From: a virus
Lineage: Duplodnaviria > Caudoviricetes
Virus record (IMG/VR): IMGVR_UViG_3300025267_000121
Span: 1 to 24,189 of that record
DNA: 24,189 nucleotides
Reading direction: 5' to 3' (one strand)
Position numbers and translations under genes: made by a program. Shown piece after piece: positions 10,598-24,189 of the stretch. The notes under the pieces were generated by a model that saw nothing but the letters and a program-made list of their open reading frames with translations, ran no database searches and was not told where the DNA came from. Each line of letters opens with the position of its first letter. Position 1 is the first letter of the stretch.

Positions 10598-11899
10598 ATG
10601 GCTAAATTTGAAGATGTTTACCGAAAAATGGTTCAGGAACAAGCACAACCTGAAGCAGTTGAAGAAACTGCTGAAACCATTGTCGAAGAAGTAGAAGAAG
10701 CGGTGATTACAGAAGTAAAGAAAGAGTCTAAGGCAAAAGAAGAATTTCCGCCTAAAAAAGACGATGAAGAAGATGATGAGGACGAAAAGAAGAAGAAAAA
10801 TGGTGATGATGTAGAAGAAGATGACCATGAAGAAGATGATGAGGACGAAAAGAAGAAAAAGGACGATGATGAAGAAAAGGTAGAGAAAAAAGAATCTACG
10901 AAAAAAGAGTCCACCAAGAAAGAAGCAGTGAAGAAAGAAGCTGTAGCAAAAGAGAAGGTGGAAACGAAAGAAGCAGTGAAGAAAGAAAACGCTGATATTC
11001 CTCGGACCAAGAACGGGATTCTGAAAGCCGTGTATGGTAAGATGGAAGGCATTAAGAAAGAACATCTCGCCCAAGCATACAATGCAATTCTTGCTTCGTT
11101 TGATAAGATCAAAGAAGATGGTAAGAATGGTGATGATGAGAAAAAGAAGAAAGTGGACGTTGACGTAAAAGAACATATGTCTGCTCTTTTCCATGGCGAA
11201 GAGGAACTTTCCGAAGGGTTCAAAGAGAAAGCTGAAGTCATTTTTGAAGCAGCGGTTCGCTCGAAGATCGATTCCGAGATTGATCGACTTGAAACAGAAT
11301 ACTCAACTGAGTTGAATGATGCTATGCAACAATCAACGGAAGAGTTGACTGAGAAAGTTGACCAATATCTTGATTATGTCGTATCTGAGTGGATGAAAGA
11401 TAATGAAGTTGCCGTGGAACGTGGCGTAAAGTCAGAGTTGACGGAAGATTTCATTAAAGGTTTGAAGAATCTCTTTACTGACCACTACATTGAAGTGCCA
11501 GAAAACAAAGAGGATGTTCTTGCCGGGTTTGCTGATAAATGTCAAGACCTCGAAAACAAACTCAATGAACAAATCAAAAAGAATACTGAAATGAAACAAG
11601 AGTTAAACGAATCCCGGAAGGCTGAAATCCTTAGGGATGTGTCTGACGGGCTTGCCGAAACCGAAGTTGAGAAACTTCGTGGACTGAGCAAGAGCATACA
11701 GTATGATTCTGATGCCCAATATCGTGACCAACTTTCAGTTGTGAAGGAAAACTATTTCCCGAAACAAACTGTGGCGGTTGCTGATACGGCGGCAGAAGAA
11801 GCTAGTGGAAATGACACACATGCCGAAATGCCATCATCGATGGCACGTTATGCGAGTTCAATTAGAACTATGACATCACAAGACATTTATGAAAACTAA
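10598..11899 (+). CDS. gp22: Prohead core scaffold protein (T4 gp22-like)
   Basis: LSEGFKEKAEVIFEAAV, VDQYLDYVVSEWM..NEVAVERG, GLKNLFTDHYIEVP; lies between gp21 and gp23. Confidence 0.93.
   Translation: MAKFEDVYRKMVQEQAQPEAVEETAETIVEEVEEAVITEVKKESKAKEEFPPKKDDEEDDEDEKKKKNGDDVEEDDHEEDDEDEKKKKDDDEEKVEKKESTKKESTKKEAVKKEAVAKEKVETKEAVKKENADIPRTKNGILKAVYGKMEGIKKEHLAQAYNAILASFDKIKEDGKNGDDEKKKKVDVDVKEHMSALFHGEEELSEGFKEKAEVIFEAAVRSKIDSEIDRLETEYSTELNDAMQQSTEELTEKVDQYLDYVVSEWMKDNEVAVERGVKSELTEDFIKGLKNLFTDHYIEVPENKEDVLAGFADKCQDLENKLNEQIKKNTEMKQELNESRKAEILRDVSDGLAETEVEKLRGLSKSIQYDSDAQYRDQLSVVKENYFPKQTVAVADTAAEEASGNDTHAEMPSSMARYASSIRTMTSQDIYEN
10764..10857 (+). repeat. 31-nt exact direct repeat with 63-nt period inside gp22 (10764-10794, 10827-10857)
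   Basis: ATGAAGAAGATGATGAGGACGAAAAGAAGAA occurs twice, encoding EEDDEDEKKK; followed by KKEST/KKEAV pentapeptide repeats. Confidence 0.85.
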
Positions 11900-17984: not shown

Positions 17985-19051
17985 AAATTGCTTTGATTAA
18001 CGATACGCATTTTGGTGCTCGCCAAGATTCGTCTGCGTTCCATGATTACTTTATGAAGTTTTATAACAATGTCTTTTTCCCTTACCTCGAAGAACACCAA
18101 ATCAAAACAGTCGTGCATTTGGGTGATGTCGTTGAACGCCGCAAGTTTATTAACTTCAATATTCTGAGAAAGTTGCGAGCAGGGTTTGTCTTTCGTTTAG
18201 GGTTGATGAATGTTGATACGCATATTATTATTGGGAATCACGATACTTATTGGAAGAACACCAATTCTGTCAATTCGATGGAAGAACTATTCACGACATT
18301 TGATGGGTCACATGAACCTTGGATTTATTCTCAACCGAAAGTTGTGAACTTTGATGGACTTGATGTGTTAATGATGCCGTGGATCAATTCAGACAATCAA
18401 GAAGCGTGTGTGAATATGCTTCGCACAACCAAGGCATCTGTGGTGATGGGGCATTTAGAAGTTAAGGGATTTGAAATGTATCGTGGGCATCATAGTGATG
18501 TGGGCCAAGAGATGTCGCACTTCCAACGATTTGATATGGTGATGTCGGGTCACTTCCATCATAAATCAGATAACGGCACCGTCTATTATCTTGGTGCGCC
18601 ATATGAGATTACATGGTCAGACTTCCAAGATAGTCGTGGGTTCCATGTCTTTGATACCGATTCCAGAGAGTTGACAAGAGTAGAAAATCCGTATAGAATG
18701 TTTCATAAGGTGTATTATGATGATAAGGGAAAGTCGGCAAACGAAGTCTTCCCCACATCATATACCGAGTTTCAAGATACTTGCGTGAAAGTCGTGGTGT
18801 TAAATAAAACGCAACCGAAGTTGTTTGATGAGCTATTAGATAAACTGTATAAACAGAACCCGATTGATCTGTCGATTGTCGAAGATTTCACCGAGTATGA
18901 TTCGGAAGTCTCTGATGAAGTGTTACAAGCGGAAGACACCTTGACGATCTTAGGGAAGTATGTTGATAATATGGAGTTAGAGATTAAGAAACCCAAACTG
19001 AAAGGCTTGTTGAATACGCTCTATACTGAGGCGATTAACGCTGAATCATAA
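17981..19051 (+). CDS. gp47: Recombination endonuclease subunit (T4 gp47, Mre11/SbcD-like)
   Basis: Metallophosphoesterase motifs DTHFG, HLGD, GNHD, GHLE, SGHFH. Confidence 0.96.
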   Translation: MKIALINDTHFGARQDSSAFHDYFMKFYNNVFFPYLEEHQIKTVVHLGDVVERRKFINFNILRKLRAGFVFRLGLMNVDTHIIIGNHDTYWKNTNSVNSMEELFTTFDGSHEPWIYSQPKVVNFDGLDVLMMPWINSDNQEACVNMLRTTKASVVMGHLEVKGFEMYRGHHSDVGQEMSHFQRFDMVMSGHFHHKSDNGTVYYLGAPYEITWSDFQDSRGFHVFDTDSRELTRVENPYRMFHKVYYDDKGKSANEVFPTSYTEFQDTCVKVVVLNKTQPKLFDELLDKLYKQNPIDLSIVEDFTEYDSEVSDEVLQAEDTLTILGKYVDNMELEIKKPKLKGLLNTLYTEAINAES

Positions 19052-20823
19052 TGATCCGTTTTAAACGTGTTTCTTGGAAAAACTTTCTCTCGACAGGCAA
19101 TCAGCCTATCGAAATCTTTCTTGACCATCGACCCACGACATTGATTGTAGGTCATAATGGGTCGGGGAAATCGACCATTCTTGATGCGCTCACCTTTGGT
19201 CTCTTTGGCAAACCCTTTCGTAAAATCCATAAACCCCAACTATGCAATACGATCAATCAACGTGATTGCCGTGTTGAAGTTGATTTTACGATTGGGACCA
19301 AAGAGTATAAGATTGTCCGTGCGATTAAACCCAACTTGTTTGAGATTTATTGTAATGGGACAAAACTGAATCAAGACCCGAAGGCCAGAGATTATCAAAA
19401 AGACCTTGAACAACAAATTCTCAAATTGAACTTTCGTTCCTTTTCCCAGATTGTCATTCTGGGAAGTTCCTCGTTTGTTCCATTCATGCAACTCTCTCCT
19501 AATCATCGCCGTGAAGTGATTGAAGATTTACTCGACATTCAAATCTTTTCGGTGATGAATGGGTTGCTGAAGGAAAAGTTTGCCAAATTGCGTGATGATA
19601 TACAGGAAACTGAGTATCAAACCAAATTGTTGGGTGAACAGATTACCATGCAAGCTCAATATGTGAAAACGATTAAAGATGACCTTGAAACAAAGTTGAT
19701 TGAAAATAAAGACACGATAGGCCAGAATCAAAATTTGATTACGGTCTATCAAACGGAGATTGAACAACTCAAGACAGAGATTGCCGAGTTGTTGACTAAG
19801 GCGAAGTCTTATGAGAAGTGGAAAGATCGACAAGAACAACTGCGTGAAATTGAAATGAAAATGAAAAGTAACATGAAGCGCAACCAGAAACAACTCTCGT
19901 TTTTATATGAGACCGAGGTGTGCGGAACGTGTGAACAATCGATTGATGAACAGTTTAAAGCTAAGATGACCGAAAAGCGTATGTCAAAGATTCATGAATT
20001 GTCAAACGGATTGACGGTGTTAGGAAGAAAACTTGATACGGTGTTTGAGCATTTGACAGAGTTAGATGCTATTACGACAACAATTCAAGAACGACAATCA
20101 AAGGTGATTGAAAAACAAACATCGATGCAAGCATGTACTGAATATATTAAGAAAGTGGAACGAGAAATATATGATTTAGAACATCGCCATGAATCAGGAG
20201 ACGCCAAAAAAGTTGAAGAATTGACACAAGAAAAGGTTATGGTTGATGCGAAGGTAGACGAATTGAAAGATGATCGTCATTACCATGAGATTGCGAAAGC
20301 GGTCTTACAAGACACAGGTATCAAAACCAAAATCATTCGTCAATATCTTCCTGTAATGAATAAGTTGATTAACAAGTATTTGTCATCGATGGATTTCTTT
20401 GTCAATTTCACCCTCGATGAAAACTTTACTGAAACGATTAAGAGCAGATTCCGTGATGAGTTTAGTTATGCGTCATTCTCTGAAGGTGAGAAGATGCGGA
20501 TTGATTTGTCATTGTTGTTTACATGGCGGGCGATTGCGAAGTTGAAGAATAGTGCGAATACGAATTTGTTGATTCTTGATGAAGTGTTTGATTCGTCACT
20601 TGATGTGGCGGGGACCGATGACTTTTTGAAACTGCTACAATCGTTTGGAAAAGACACCAACATTTTTGTGATTAGTCATAAGGGTGATGTGTTGTTTGAT
20701 AAGTTCCATACCGTGTTGAAGTTTGATAAAGTCAAGAACTTTACACAACTGTCCTTTTTGGGGTTGGGTGATGTGAAGGGTGGTTATAGTGAACCAATGA
20801 AAGATGGTATGTTGAATGTTTGA
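19051..20823 (+). CDS. gp46: Recombination ATPase subunit (T4 gp46, Rad50/SbcC-like)
   Basis: Walker A GHNGSGKST, CGTC zinc hook between coiled coils, signature FSEGEKMRIDL, LILDEVFD, ISHK. Confidence 0.97.
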   Translation: MIRFKRVSWKNFLSTGNQPIEIFLDHRPTTLIVGHNGSGKSTILDALTFGLFGKPFRKIHKPQLCNTINQRDCRVEVDFTIGTKEYKIVRAIKPNLFEIYCNGTKLNQDPKARDYQKDLEQQILKLNFRSFSQIVILGSSSFVPFMQLSPNHRREVIEDLLDIQIFSVMNGLLKEKFAKLRDDIQETEYQTKLLGEQITMQAQYVKTIKDDLETKLIENKDTIGQNQNLITVYQTEIEQLKTEIAELLTKAKSYEKWKDRQEQLREIEMKMKSNMKRNQKQLSFLYETEVCGTCEQSIDEQFKAKMTEKRMSKIHELSNGLTVLGRKLDTVFEHLTELDAITTTIQERQSKVIEKQTSMQACTEYIKKVEREIYDLEHRHESGDAKKVEELTQEKVMVDAKVDELKDDRHYHEIAKAVLQDTGIKTKIIRQYLPVMNKLINKYLSSMDFFVNFTLDENFTETIKSRFRDEFSYASFSEGEKMRIDLSLLFTWRAIAKLKNSANTNLLILDEVFDSSLDVAGTDDFLKLLQSFGKDTNIFVISHKGDVLFDKFHTVLKFDKVKNFTQLSFLGLGDVKGGYSEPMKDGMLNV

Positions 20824-21853
20824 ATCAACGACAATCAATAAAGATAAAATCAAAGATGATGTGAACGAAGCTGTGGTTGAATCGGTCTATCGTGAATGGC
20901 AAGATCGTGGGTTCCCGTATTATCCGACTGATTATGAATGGCGCCTTAAACGGTTTAATGACCTTTTGAAATTTGATAGAAGTGGATTATATAAGCCAGA
21001 AGAAAAAATTGTAGGATCTTCAGCACATGGACTTTCTCTGGCGTGGAGTTATATGCCACATAGTTGGGGTATCAAATGCGGGAACATGCGAACTCCGATA
21101 GAGATATGGAATGATGAAGAACATTTCAAGAAAGGGATTCGTAAAATATTGAGTGGGACATTTTGGGAAAAACGAGAAGCGCATGAAATCACCGCATCAG
21201 ATTTACGAAGTTTGTTACGAAGATATACAGGTACACAAATGGTGTCGAATTTTCGGCCGACAGCAGCAGCGACATTGTATGATAAGTTTCTTGAGAAATC
21301 GTCTCCTTTGTTTGGGACGAAAGCAGGCACCACGTGGGACATGAGTTGTGGGTATGGGGGTCGGCTGTTGGGGTCAATAGCCGCTGGCGTCAACTATATT
21401 GGTACCGACCCTTGTACTGAAACATTCAAAGGTCTTGAGCAAATACGAGATGAATGGAAACTGCCTCATCAAACGGTTGAGTTGCATAAATTAGGAAGTG
21501 AAGTGTTCCGCCCAGATAAGAATAGTGTAGATTTGTGTTTTACCTCTCCTCCCTATTTTGATTGGGAAAAATATTCTGATGAAGATTCCCAGAGTTATAA
21601 GCAGTTCGAGACATCAGAGGCGTGGGTCGAAGGGTTCCTCCGCAAGACGATGGAAAACTGTCATTATGGATTGAAACCTGATGCTGTGTTAGTGATGAAT
21701 GTAGCGAATACGAAACGTATCAAAAACTTTGAGCCTGAAACGTTGAGATTAGGAAAAGAAATAGGGATGAAGCATGTGGATACGTGGTATCTTCAACTGT
21801 CTTCCCAACAAGGTAAGATTAAAACTGAACCGATGTTTATATTTAAAAAATGA
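20816..21853 (+). CDS. SAM-dependent amino (N4-C/N6-A type) DNA methyltransferase-like protein
   Basis: SAM-binding motif I WDMSCGYGGRL precedes catalytic motif IV DLCFTSPPYF. Confidence 0.82.
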   Translation: MFESTTINKDKIKDDVNEAVVESVYREWQDRGFPYYPTDYEWRLKRFNDLLKFDRSGLYKPEEKIVGSSAHGLSLAWSYMPHSWGIKCGNMRTPIEIWNDEEHFKKGIRKILSGTFWEKREAHEITASDLRSLLRRYTGTQMVSNFRPTAAATLYDKFLEKSSPLFGTKAGTTWDMSCGYGGRLLGSIAAGVNYIGTDPCTETFKGLEQIRDEWKLPHQTVELHKLGSEVFRPDKNSVDLCFTSPPYFDWEKYSDEDSQSYKQFETSEAWVEGFLRKTMENCHYGLKPDAVLVMNVANTKRIKNFEPETLRLGKEIGMKHVDTWYLQLSSQQGKIKTEPMFIFKK

Positions 21854-22983
21854 AAGACTGGCAAAAAAATATTCCCCTTGATACTCTCTTAGAGTTAGAA
21901 CAGCTGTGGGAAGGGTATAATCAACGGACTTTATCTCCGTTTCTCGAAATGAAAAAACATACGATTGCGAGGACATTAAGTGAAGGTACCTATACTTATG
22001 GGAAAACTTGGGCGATGGTGAGTCGTGTAAGTAAATCAAAAACCCAATTTAATATGTATTCGGCGTATAAGATACCAATAGCGACTATTGTACCAGATGA
22101 TTGTATTGTTGAGAAAATTGCATATACAGATTCACAGGAGATGATTAAAGCTTTGAATACACAAACTGAGAATGTCTATTTGTTGATAAATGAAGAACAT
22201 CAGCTTGATCGAGAAGTAGCAACAACGGCTGGGTTTTGTAAAGTTGGTATTAAGATCAATACATTTGGTGATATTCAAGGTCTGTATTTTCGGGACAAGC
22301 AACCTTCGTTAGCGTTTGGTGGTCGAGAATTTCCTGAACAACTAGATTTGCTTCCTGAGGAGAAATTGGTGTTGACGAAAGCAAAACTTTCTGATGTAAC
22401 GGAGTCATGTCAGTTAATCTATCAACGATTGTGTGATTTTGATTATACATTTACAAACCACTATTCTAACTATAATAAAGATAAATCATGGAGTGCGATT
22501 TCTTTGCGTGGGTATACAGCTGATGGTAGTTTTATTACGAAACCCGCAGAGATGAGTAAGGCGTGGAAAGAGAAACACAAAGATGAAGTGTTTGAGTTGC
22601 AAGATACTCCACTTCGGGAAAAGTTTCCTGAGGTTGAACACCTTATTCGTTTGTTGCCTGGTTTACCACACCGTATACGATTTATGAATTTGAAACCAGG
22701 AGGGGGAGAATTGCAACGACACACCGATCAAGTTGATCCAGATGCAGGTGTAATAGATAAAAAATTGATGCGATTTCATTTTCCTATAGTGACAAACCCA
22801 GATGTGATTTTTAATCAATGGGATTGGAATGCAAATTTGGTTAAAGTACATATGCGAGTTGGTGAATGTTGGTATATTGATGTACGCAAACCACACCGTG
22901 CGATCAATGGTGGTACTGAGATGCGAACTCATTTAGTTATTGATGTGGAAGCTAATAAGGAGGTAAGATCATTGATATGTTGA
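21850..22983 (+). CDS. 2-oxoglutarate/Fe(II) oxygenase (Asp/Asn beta-hydroxylase-like C-domain) with a possible degenerate GNAT-like N-domain
   Basis: RIRFMNLKPGG...HTD...RFHFPIVTN...GECWYID.RKPH.AINGG..MR.HLVID gives HxD...H...R. The N-domain segment VYLLINEEH...AGFCKVG resembles a GNAT C-terminal motif. Confidence 0.78.
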   Translation: MKDWQKNIPLDTLLELEQLWEGYNQRTLSPFLEMKKHTIARTLSEGTYTYGKTWAMVSRVSKSKTQFNMYSAYKIPIATIVPDDCIVEKIAYTDSQEMIKALNTQTENVYLLINEEHQLDREVATTAGFCKVGIKINTFGDIQGLYFRDKQPSLAFGGREFPEQLDLLPEEKLVLTKAKLSDVTESCQLIYQRLCDFDYTFTNHYSNYNKDKSWSAISLRGYTADGSFITKPAEMSKAWKEKHKDEVFELQDTPLREKFPEVEHLIRLLPGLPHRIRFMNLKPGGGELQRHTDQVDPDAGVIDKKLMRFHFPIVTNPDVIFNQWDWNANLVKVHMRVGECWYIDVRKPHRAINGGTEMRTHLVIDVEANKEVRSLIC

Positions 22984-23852
22984 CACCTGTAGATTATCGT
23001 GAAGGAATATATTGGAAACGAGATGACTTGTTTCGACCGTTTGGTGAATATCATGTTAATGGTGGAAAAGTTCGTCAAGCGATACAGTTGTTTGAAACGA
23101 AAATTGATGAGATTCGTTCTCGTCATAATAATGGTGTGATTACTGCAGCGTCAGTCCATTCACCACAATCAGCGAATATTGGGAAAGTGGCACAACTGTA
23201 TGGTGTTCTCTGTATTGCTGCCGTCGGTGGAACAAAACCTGAAAATTTAGATAAGTTACCAATGATGCGATTGACTCAGTATTATGGAGCATCAATTCGT
23301 ATTGTAGCAGGTCATGGTATGTCACCGGTTATTCATGCAAGGATGCGTGATATTGCAAAAGAAACAGGGTATCTACCTATTGAGATGGGTGAGTTGATGG
23401 AGACTAACCCTAAAGAAATTTTTGAAACAACTGCTGCACAAGTAGAAAATATTCCAGATGAATTAGACAATCTGATTATTCCTACAGGAGTGGCCATTCA
23501 AACAACAGGAATTCTTATTGGACTGAAACGATATAAGAAGAAGGTGAAGCGTATTGTTTGTGTATGTGTTGGTCCGACCAGAGAAAAGAAAATTCATGGG
23601 TATTTTAAAGATGTCTATGGTGATATAACTGAGAACTATCATCCATTTGAAATGGTGGCCCACCCAGCACCGTATGCAAAATCATTTCATTTTAAAATTG
23701 AGGGTGAATATATGGATGATATATATGAAGGTAAAGCGTATGATTGGTTGGTAAAGAATATTGATTATAAGAAAGAAAAAACGATGATGTGGTTGGTGGG
23801 TAAACGTCCACGACCAGAAGATATTAACTATATGATGGAACATAAATTATGA
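22977..23852 (+). CDS. PLP-dependent enzyme, fold type II (ACC deaminase / D-cysteine desulfhydrase-like)
   Basis: LTPV....IYWKRDDL....NGGKVRQ carries the PLP lysine position; LIIPTG loop; DDIYEGKA corresponds to the family DPVYTGKA motif. Confidence 0.8.
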   Translation: MLTPVDYREGIYWKRDDLFRPFGEYHVNGGKVRQAIQLFETKIDEIRSRHNNGVITAASVHSPQSANIGKVAQLYGVLCIAAVGGTKPENLDKLPMMRLTQYYGASIRIVAGHGMSPVIHARMRDIAKETGYLPIEMGELMETNPKEIFETTAAQVENIPDELDNLIIPTGVAIQTTGILIGLKRYKKKVKRIVCVCVGPTREKKIHGYFKDVYGDITENYHPFEMVAHPAPYAKSFHFKIEGEYMDDIYEGKAYDWLVKNIDYKKEKTMMWLVGKRPRPEDINYMMEHKL

Positions 23853-24189
23853 GACATGCAACTCTTGAAGATTTTGACAAATTGAAATCCGTTTTCAAAC
23901 AACACCGTGATGTGTTTCCTTATTTGAGGTTTGATGGATTAAAAGTAAAGATTGAGACAGGCAAAGTGATTTATGATAAGGGTGTGATTATTACTTATAA
24001 TCGGTATCAACGAAAACAAAAGTTAGGACAAAAGTGTATTGCTGAGAAAGGCGATATTGTTGTACAGGAAATTGTTAAAGAAGAAGGTGGCCACCCACAG
24101 GATGTTTGGTCACAATTTGTAAAGTATGTTGATTCCCCAATATGGTTGACCGTTAGGCGGGATAATTATCGGGCTAAACAGTTTTATGA
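23849..24189 (+). CDS. GNAT-family acetyltransferase-like protein, 3'-truncated by the window edge (absent from the ORF track)
   Basis: My translation from the ATGA overlap: MRHATLEDFDKLKSVFKQHRDVFPYLRFD...GDIVVQEIVK...PIWLTVRRDNYRAKQFY. It shows the GNAT N-terminal R.AT.ED and C-terminal L.V..DN.RA..FY motifs and is open to the window end. Confidence 0.75.
   Translation, partial: MRHATLEDFDKLKSVFKQHRDVFPYLRFDGLKVKIETGKVIYDKGVIITYNRYQRKQKLGQKCIAEKGDIVVQEIVKEEGGHPQDVWSQFVKYVDSPIWLTVRRDNYRAKQFY

Follow-up and report, generated by a model that had tools for sequence, protein, structure and literature searches.

A co-inherited methyltransferase, oxygenase, PLP enzyme and GNAT module in T4-like phages as a candidate DNA hypermodification pathway

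The viral DNA stretch IMGVR_UViG_3300025267_000121, analysed over its whole length of 24,189 bases (hereafter the window), is a contig of a T4-like phage carrying terminase, sheath, portal, capsid, UvsW, transaldolase, gp55, gp47 and gp46 genes, and behind gp46 it holds four consecutive genes for a methyltransferase (MTase)-fold enzyme, a 2-oxoglutarate (2OG)-Fe(II) oxygenase, a fold-type II pyridoxal phosphate (PLP) enzyme and a GNAT-family protein. These four genes are a real, conserved and co-inherited phage module, which is apparently undescribed and apparently matches no characterised pathway. The module quite probably makes some DNA hypermodification. As for its chemistry, we favour, at somewhat less than an even chance, a route led by the MTase-fold enzyme, in which the aminocarboxypropyl arm of S-adenosyl methionine (SAM) would be placed on a DNA base and the adduct then decarboxylated, hydroxylated and acetylated; we infer DNA as the substrate, aminocarboxypropyl as the group and each of the tailoring steps.

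The genes had been described beforehand as a run with overlapping stop and start codons, and the open reading frames (ORFs) bear this out: gp46 and the MTase gene overlap by 8 bases (20816–20823), the oxygenase and PLP genes by 7 bases (22977–22983), and ATGA stop/start junctions join the MTase gene to the oxygenase gene (21850) and the PLP gene to the GNAT gene (23849), the last ORF being open at the window end. The three inner junctions are bridged by contigs from four public runs. Contig L364, which is 99.99% identical to the window over 8037 bases, contains the complete GNAT gene (143 amino acids), followed by a 54-amino-acid ORF and then an unrelated gene of 720+ amino acids without a Pfam match; no kinase, AADT or hydroxymethylase is found in the 2.4 kb past the GNAT gene visible there. 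The GNAT gene is therefore the last gene of the cassette, and the continuation beyond the window expected in the preliminary description is rejected by the L364 sequence. L371 and L372, probably one lineage, carry the four genes in this order as well, there behind gp44 and hence at a different place in the genome (identities 67/67/86/65%), and with this recurrence the four-gene linkage exceeds chance.

The gene neighbourhoods of the four families were surveyed in 341 loci clustered at 90% identity, with partners counted within 4 kb. This set leaves out whole-genome stretches, the reference phages (L038, L039, L284, L285, L379–L381) and L363/L364, and MTase counts are inflated because it includes loci fetched with the MTase; for the oxygenase, a single-protein scan found one locus and an alignment-based scan was needed. 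The co-occurrence across phages on which the preliminary description depended was found widely, with gene fusions in addition. A family MTase stands in 63 of 67 GNAT-anchored loci, the four misses being loci that stop at most 700 bases from the GNAT gene; by cluster, the pairing holds in 30 of 33, in all 16 with full flanks, and seven of the 33 have GNAT and MTase without other partners. The two-domain oxygenase accompanies the PLP enzyme in 46 of 57 clusters and the MTase in 37 of 57 (24 of 29 for each where flanks are full), while the lone oxygenase domain is found with the MTase in 21 of 25 clusters and with GNAT in 22 of 25. The PLP enzyme occurs with the MTase in 36, with the oxygenase in 37 and with a radical SAM enzyme in 9 of 66 clusters. 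Seen from the MTase, a partner lies within 10 kb in 28 of 80 loci, and in 20 of 22 at an identity of at least 55%. On the partner counts from both sides, the tailoring genes nearly always stand with the MTase, whereas the MTase family often stands without a tailoring gene. The MTase is the hub of the module.

Fusions tie the families still more closely. The best 150 oxygenase profile hits include 21 proteins of more than 440 amino acids; Pfam was run on 20 of them and our own profiles on all 21. An MTase domain is present in 14 of the 21, mostly together with ParB, and six combine MTase, PLP, GNAT-like and AspH domains in a single chain, to which ParB can be joined as well; in four of these six, the PLP and oxygenase parts split the MTase, lying between its motif I half and its motif IV half. 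Two further proteins are GNAT–oxygenase fusions and one is an oxygenase–PLP fusion, and the reference kinase, AADT and TET proteins match none of the 21. The MTase family of the window itself is fused to PLP domains in P0121, P0122, P0124 and P0143 and takes part in the oxygenase–ParB–MTase protein P0262. In the cultured phages Pam4 and ZS04/R6L, PLP domains of two different clades are nested in a ParB-MTase; the Pam4 and ZS04 proteins, as well as P0121, P0122, P0124 and P0143, lack the oxygenase. Cassette-type genes are adjacent and ahead of the terminase in Mae-JY30 and Vincenzo. ParB domains and the position beside the terminase link the fusion forms to DNA (PMC4738411, PMC13229309). R6L gp1 is described only as a methylase, and the available part of its description reports no DNA chemistry (PMC5463345). 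A probable chimera, P0123, which joins a PLP domain to an export-protein-like part, was set aside. In Vincenzo, genes 1–4 (L039:1–3152) include a ParB-MTase, a PLP enzyme and a P-loop kinase 3, with the MTase sitting where mycobacteriophage LilMcDreamy has TET and AADT; no ADDT was found in the Vincenzo genome.

The enzyme classes first assigned to the genes, namely an SPPY MTase, an HxD...H oxygenase, a fold-type II PLP enzyme and a GNAT, hold up by Pfam, alignments, fold matches and family evidence. The MTase matches PF01555 (E 4e-6), and its motif I D175-x-S-x-G-Y-G-G-R183 (DMSCGYGGR) stands before motif IV FTSPPY (S244-P-P-Y247; S244 at 21545), so that it has the motif I plus (D/N/S)PP(Y/F/W) of the class I SAM fold of N4C/N6A amino-MTases. 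Its AlphaFold model (pLDDT 82) shows a class I fold whose best match in the PDB is Trm11 (Z 18.1, root-mean-square deviation 2.9, 183 residues aligned); the PDB sequence search gave no match below E 0.07. The family counts 954 proteins at E≤0.001; at E≤1e-30, its members form 383 clusters at 50% identity. In L317, L318, L335, L338, L350 and L352, three or four paralogues from the family lie within 10–20 kb. A different, beta-class MTase (L016:7306–7989 and relatives), in which SPPD or SLPD replaces the base-stacking aromatic residue, directly follows the PLP gene in 13 of 16 clusters; it often occupies the position that the GNAT gene takes in other loci, and it may methylate the side chain instead of the base. 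A strict exclusivity between GNAT and this MTase was considered and rejected: by score cut the two are together in none of the 341 loci, yet L300 has GNAT beside a more distant SPPD-type MTase, which leaves a tendency.

The oxygenase matches PF05118 (E 4e-10) and has the double-stranded beta-helix, HxD...H and 2OG-binding arginine of the AspH/proline-hydroxylase type, with H291-x-D293 (22720), H349 and R359 invariant in all 13 aligned rows. Its model (pLDDT 87.6) matches the nucleoside-antibiotic hydroxylase 7V4M (Z 16.6), the proline/pipecolate hydroxylase 4P7X (Z 15.6), AspH (Z 14.2) and AlkB (Z 11.8). Residues 1–150 are homologous to the fourth gene of the cassette (hhalign 92.6%, E 4.7e-7, 129 columns), and the protein is therefore a fusion of a GNAT-like and an AspH part. 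The front part, absent from the preliminary description, is a second, degenerate GNAT-like domain, and its catalytic activity is doubtful because the acetyl-CoA loop is not clear. A structural counterpart is gp4 of LilMcDreamy, which matches the oxygenase model over the full length (TM 0.79) and stands in the gene order ParB, TET/JBP-like (weak, E 0.002), AADT, gp4, P-loop kinase 3. LilMcDreamy genes 1–5 (L038:1–4333) are annotated as a queuine tRNA-ribosyltransferase, hypothetical proteins and a terminase small subunit, while Pfam identifies TET/JBP-like (weak), ADDT, AspH and P-loop kinase 3 domains; judged by this domain content, they are a putative operon for thymidine hypermodification whose oxygenase step is undescribed.

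The PLP enzyme connects the module to known DNA chemistry. It matches PF00291 (E 7e-11), its K31 (23067) is invariant in 17 of 17 sequences and aligns with K92 of ViI gp226, and it shares 29% identity with gp226 over 211 columns (E 6e-21) as well as the motifs NG(G/S)K, SPQ, QVxNIPD, YEGK and W(I/L)VG. The family profile finds ViI gp226 at E 8e-52 and M6 gp52 at 1e-13, both of which have been proven to decarboxylate amino-acid-thymine adducts in DNA that carry a free amine (PMC8989533). The window enzyme is accordingly predicted to decarboxylate an amino-acid-base adduct. In the tree, gp226 lies in an open fork with the window's clade, with long-branch joins flagged, and the sister of gp226 is not resolved. 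In many loci, the PLP gene that follows the oxygenase belongs to a second clade instead. In a large phage group comprising G007 (L271, L274, L275) and L132–L175, the PLP gene stands alone, at least 54 kb from two MTases of the window's family. Other loci (L025, L027, L029–L031, L035, L173, L174 and L177; e.g. L027:5792–9388) have the order ParB, ParB, radical SAM enzyme, PLP enzyme of the same family and, behind it, terminase-like genes; neither an MTase nor an AADT or a kinase lies near them. Some radical SAM enzymes transfer an aminocarboxypropyl group, and these loci suggest a second route to the PLP enzyme's substrate.

The fourth gene is assigned to the GNAT family on family evidence. The window protein has no GNAT match in Pfam, whether partial or at full length; a relative with 43% identity matches PF00583 (E 0.002), a relative with 63% identity falls in N-acetyltransferase clusters at 0.98–0.99 in Atlas, and the family profile gives a weak match to N-alpha-acetyltransferases in the PDB (E 0.055). 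PHROGs and NCBIfam scans named nothing specific, and tblastn found no match in 50,697 phage records.

The core enzymes of known hypermodification pathways were searched for in relatives, among which G001 and G004 are complete and carry the oxygenase, the PLP enzyme and the MTase. ADDT/AADT (PF18724) is over the cut-off in none of five near-complete genomes and none of 15 records, nor in the window or L364, with the LilMcDreamy control matching; a single weak match in G006 (E 1e-4) has four internal stops and is below the cut-off. It is also absent from the four cultured phages with MTase and PLP enzyme, where the M6 control matches. Ploopntkinase3 (PF18751) was found in 0/5 near-complete genomes and 0/15 records (LilMcDreamy control matching), HMUDK_hel (PF18723) in 0/3 complete genomes (G001, G004, G007) with controls, and Tet_JBP (PF12851) in 0/15 records, five of them near-complete, with a weak control (E 3e-5). 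A 5-hydroxymethyluracil DNA kinase was not found in the complete relatives with ViI gp243 and M6 gp54 as queries, ViI gp67 not being among them. In record sets that include the complete G001, G004 and G007, ThyA-type dUMP hydroxymethylase (PF00303) gave 0/4 with the M6 control matching, C5-MTase (PF00145) 0/5, and QueC and DpdA 0/5 each, the DpdA model being of bacterial type, without a phage control and liable to miss phage forms. The ViI, M6 and LilMcDreamy core proteins gave no tblastn match in these three genomes, and the reference kinase, AADT, TET, radical SAM and hydroxymethylase proteins gave none in the 341 loci.

The earlier proposal of a DNA hypermodification pathway stands in so far as amino-acid adducts in phage DNA are the substrates of the module's nearest studied relatives. 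However, the step order proposed there (methylate, hydroxylate, substitute, acylate) is a poor fit, because every one of the tailoring enzymes is found paired with the MTase in the absence of the other two, and the oxygenase occurs in LilMcDreamy, behind AADT, without any MTase. Known side-chain suppliers were not found. The simplest single product to suit all three enzymes would be the aminocarboxypropyl arm, for the PLP family depends on an alpha-amino acid whose amine is free, the GNAT on an amine and the oxygenase on an aliphatic side chain. In the proposed route, the MTase-fold enzyme would move the 3-amino-3-carboxypropyl arm of SAM, rather than a methyl group, onto an exocyclic base amine, most likely cytosine N4 and possibly adenine N6, yielding an alpha-amino acid on the base; cytosine N4 is weakly favoured by the SPPY motif and by how common motifs of the m4C type are among marine myoviruses (PMC8919816). 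The PLP enzyme would remove CO2 and leave a cationic 3-aminopropyl base. In a variant order, the PLP enzyme would decarboxylate SAM first and the MTase fold would act as an aminopropyl transferase, giving the same product. The AspH-type domain would hydroxylate a side-chain carbon, as in hydroxywybutosine, and the GNAT would acetylate the primary amine in the manner of PaMx11 gp48, the GNAT slot being taken in other phages by the SPPD/SLPD-motif MTase. The final product in the window phage would be a hydroxylated N-(3-acetamidopropyl) base, which may serve as protection against host nucleases, for denser packaging, or both. TYW2 performs a SAM-derived aminocarboxypropyl transfer to an RNA base. 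Such transfer is likewise established for acp3U and TapT (PMC12630136), wybutosine and its hydroxylase are a tRNA precedent (PMC2938197), and acetylation of a base-borne primary amine is the reaction of PaMx11 gp48 (PMC8989533).

A number of observations weigh against this route. Nothing in the MTase sequence or fold distinguishes methyl from aminocarboxypropyl transfer, and the SPPY motif is ordinary. The motif I arginine was considered as a marker of changed chemistry and rejected, being family-wide (118 of 122 clusters) rather than partner-specific. The nearest folds of the MTase are tRNA m2G enzymes, so that an RNA substrate is conceivable, and the TYW2-type structure 3K6R ranks 16th with a TM of 0.35 among hundreds of matching class I folds. 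Many long forms of the family are fused to HNH, LAGLIDADG or other domains, and no annotated partner genes lie near the MTase in cultured Vibrio, Bacteroides and Mammaliicoccus phages. MTase loci at an identity of at most 50% have a partner within 10 kb in only 8 of 58 cases, and PALP is present in 3 of 16 lone-MTase records (one of four near-complete). Most multi-domain fusions use a Vincenzo gp1-type MTase, the window's subfamily occurring only in P0262 and the MTase–PLP fusions. Many PLP relatives are far from any MTase (54 kb in G007) or in the nine radical SAM clusters. GNAT motif B is intact in the window protein (WLTVRRDNYRAKQFY), and motif A is eroded in its clade. The core-gene searches cover relatives, the genome of the window phage itself being known for about 27 kb. 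Finally, a single-molecule real-time (SMRT) sequencing study, in the part available, reports only methylation motifs in viral genomes (PMC8919816).

The foremost alternative is DNA hypermodification by other chemistry, with the MTase methylating and the side chain coming from elsewhere: the oxygenase could activate an N-methyl group that an amino acid then attacks, the PLP enzyme could add an aminoacrylate from serine or cysteine, or the GNAT could act on adenine like Mu Mom. The ordinary SPPY motif suits this reading, as do the PDB relatives of the PLP profile (ACC deaminase, D-cysteine desulfhydrase and cysteine synthase), which carry out elimination or replacement, a ThiS-family sulfur carrier with a GG end within the cassette in three of the 341 loci (L022:7753–7986, L023 and L037; PF02597, E 4e-10), and the seven clusters with GNAT and MTase alone, which also suit a Mom-like action (PMC7261163). 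However, N-methyl activation sits poorly with the many MTase–PLP sets and fusions that lack the oxygenase, with the oxygenase of LilMcDreamy standing without an MTase, and with an oxygenase fold nearer to amino-acid hydroxylases than to AlkB. In 25 of 33 MTase-linked GNAT clusters no PLP enzyme lies within 4 kb, and G005, which measures 120 kb at 68% completeness, has none; a single product of such chemistry would have to suit three enzymes separately. We regard it as possible but rather unlikely.

An unlikely second alternative takes the MTase for a plain orphan m4C/m6A methylase, with the other enzymes acting on proteins, tRNA or metabolites and the linkage due to insertion at a common hot spot within the replication region. 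The MTase family often stands alone and its top folds are tRNA enzymes, and several MTases and m4C motifs are reported in marine myoviruses (PMC8919816). Bacterial genes of the beta-hydroxylase family are linked to tail-collar and glycine-rich proteins with acetyltransferases (PMC2938197), and the window has a glycine-rich protein at 3–1319. The slot behind gp46 is also occupied by a deformylase, 2OG oxygenases, a dCMP deaminase and sugar enzymes. Against this alternative stand the repeated single-chain fusions, the two PLP clades nested in an MTase domain, ParB next to the terminase, the four-gene order at a second genome position (L371), and the PLP motifs in common with ViI gp226. It is still less probable that the genes are tailoring enzymes finishing a known modified base, an amino-acid-thymine or a 7-deazaguanine amine, with core enzymes in the unseen genome or too diverged. 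In favour of this reading are the kinship of the PLP enzyme to ViI gp226 and M6 gp52, the oxygenase twin inside a TET/AADT/kinase operon and the fact that only 27 kb or so of the window phage has been seen; against it, the core families were not found, with working controls, in the complete relatives G001 and G004.

The coordinates of the cassette are collected in Table 1. Of the 24 public runs listed, 18 contain at least half of the sampled words of the window region 18000–24189, and almost all carry a marine, seawater or aquatic label; RNA runs contain only small shares of this region. The C-terminal tail of the window gp46 is about 20 amino acids longer than in six relatives and extends into the MTase start (20760–20823), which suggests an insertion junction, and loose ends of public contigs at 21848 and 23839 coincide with gene boundaries; the extended gp46 end and these loose ends both suggest exchange of single genes. 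Elsewhere in the window, two paralogous proteins (3–2045) with a common C-terminal block, one bearing a long glycine-rich domain (PF21722), are probably tail-fibre-like, and a scaffold-like gp22 (10598–11899) has a long, strongly charged low-complexity stretch. Glycosyltransferase-, hexapeptide acyltransferase-, formyltransferase- and methyltransferase-like genes often lie behind the cassette in related loci (L371:9210–11330; L018–L023, L041–L045 and L048).

Table 1. Cassette genes and domains and the upstream neighbour, in window positions
Feature	Position	Strand	Evidence
gp46, upstream neighbour, outside the module	19051..20823	+	ORF and Pfam analysis
MTase-fold enzyme, 345 amino acids	20816..21853	+	ORF; PF01555; AlphaFold model
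Oxygenase ORF, 377 amino acids	21850..22983	+	ORF; GNAT-like part and PF05118 part
Degenerate GNAT-like N-terminal domain of the oxygenase, about residues 1–150	21850..22300	+	hhalign, alignment
AspH/proline-hydroxylase-type 2OG-Fe(II) oxygenase domain	22459..22983	+	PF05118 at residues 204–367; model
Fold-type II PLP enzyme, 291 amino acids	22977..23852	+	PF00291; profile match to ViI gp226
Stand-alone GNAT-family protein, 113 of 143 amino acids in the window, final cassette gene	23849..24189	+	Family evidence; full length at L364:7697–8128

The literature covered, which includes few subscription papers, yielded no description of a module of the MTase–PLP–AspH–GNAT type and none of DNA bases given an aminocarboxypropyl or aminopropyl group by an MTase fold, and to this extent the lack of a matching characterised pathway stated in the preliminary description is supported. 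Iyer et al. in 2013 reportedly predicted that phage modification systems include PLP enzymes and ParB loci, and their work may partly cover the module. The MTases of ParB-terminase loci are predicted DNA modifiers, with no PLP partners noted in the available part (PMC4738411), N6/N4 MTases and GNATs are among TET neighbours (PMC13229309), and the known tailoring classes are listed, as far as the source was available, without the MTase–PLP–AspH–GNAT type (PMC13458397). The described amino-acid-type DNA hypermodifications covered here all start from 5-hydroxymethyluracil, and a methylase-fold-led route, if true, would be a new branch of base chemistry and a one-enzyme means of placing a primary amine handle on DNA; some supposed plain methylases and SMRT m4C/m6A calls in abundant aquatic phages would then have been misread. 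We suggest more widely, while leaning towards doubt, that widespread phage "DNA methylases" may be DNA aminocarboxypropyl transferases. They would then stand at the origin of a second family of hypermodified bases that does not depend on thymidine, with C or A bearing aminocarboxypropyl or aminopropyl groups and their hydroxy-, acetyl- and methyl-capped forms, both in T4-like phages abundant in marine and fresh waters and in small ParB-terminase phages. Compact versions occur in the cultured Pseudanabaena phage Pam4 (gp70), Erythrobacter phages R6L/ZS04, Microcystis phage Mae-JY30 and M. smegmatis phages Vincenzo/AlanGrant, and such phages make the module directly testable.

Among known systems, the ParB-dependent TET/JBP T-dioxygenase loci of the LilMcDreamy type (PMC13229309) share the two-domain GNAT-like and AspH build, in gp4, and the ParB/terminase context of the fusion forms. 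In contrast, the window oxygenase belongs to PF05118 rather than TET/JBP, which also separates it from cytosine hypermodification by TET/JBP and C5-MTase, and the window has no TET, AADT or kinase. Phage Mu Mom is likewise a GNAT fold in a phage DNA-modification setting (PMC7261163), but the window GNAT is tied to an MTase, and it matched no Mom family in Pfam, PHROGs and NCBIfam scans, no direct comparison with Mom having been made. Orphan and ParB-terminase N4C/N6A MTases (PF01555; PMC4738411, PMC8919816) have the class I fold, SPPY and the replication or packaging context in common with the module enzyme, whose differences are the motif I DxSxG(W/Y)GGR and the coupling or fusion to PLP enzyme, oxygenase and GNAT. 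The likeness to wybutosine and acp3U is a proposed one by analogy, in that a SAM-derived amino-acid arm on a base would be followed by hydroxylation and amine capping; those are tRNA modifications without a PLP decarboxylase, and no sequence kinship to them is shown. TYW5, moreover, is a JmjC and not an AspH-type enzyme.

A further close system is the thymidine hypermodification of ViI, M6 and PaMx11, which is built on a core of 5-HMUDK and AADT, the PLP decarboxylases gp226 and gp52 and the acetyltransferase gp48 (PMC8989533). Unlike that system, the module's relatives have no match to the kinase, AADT, hydroxymethylase or TET, an amino-MTase fold stands in the core position, and the tailoring set includes an AspH-type oxygenase, which is not among the tailoring enzymes described in the available part of that source. 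The two systems have in common homologous PLP enzymes whose catalytic lysine is conserved, a GNAT to cap an amine, tailoring genes that are mixed and matched, and a post-replicative logic.

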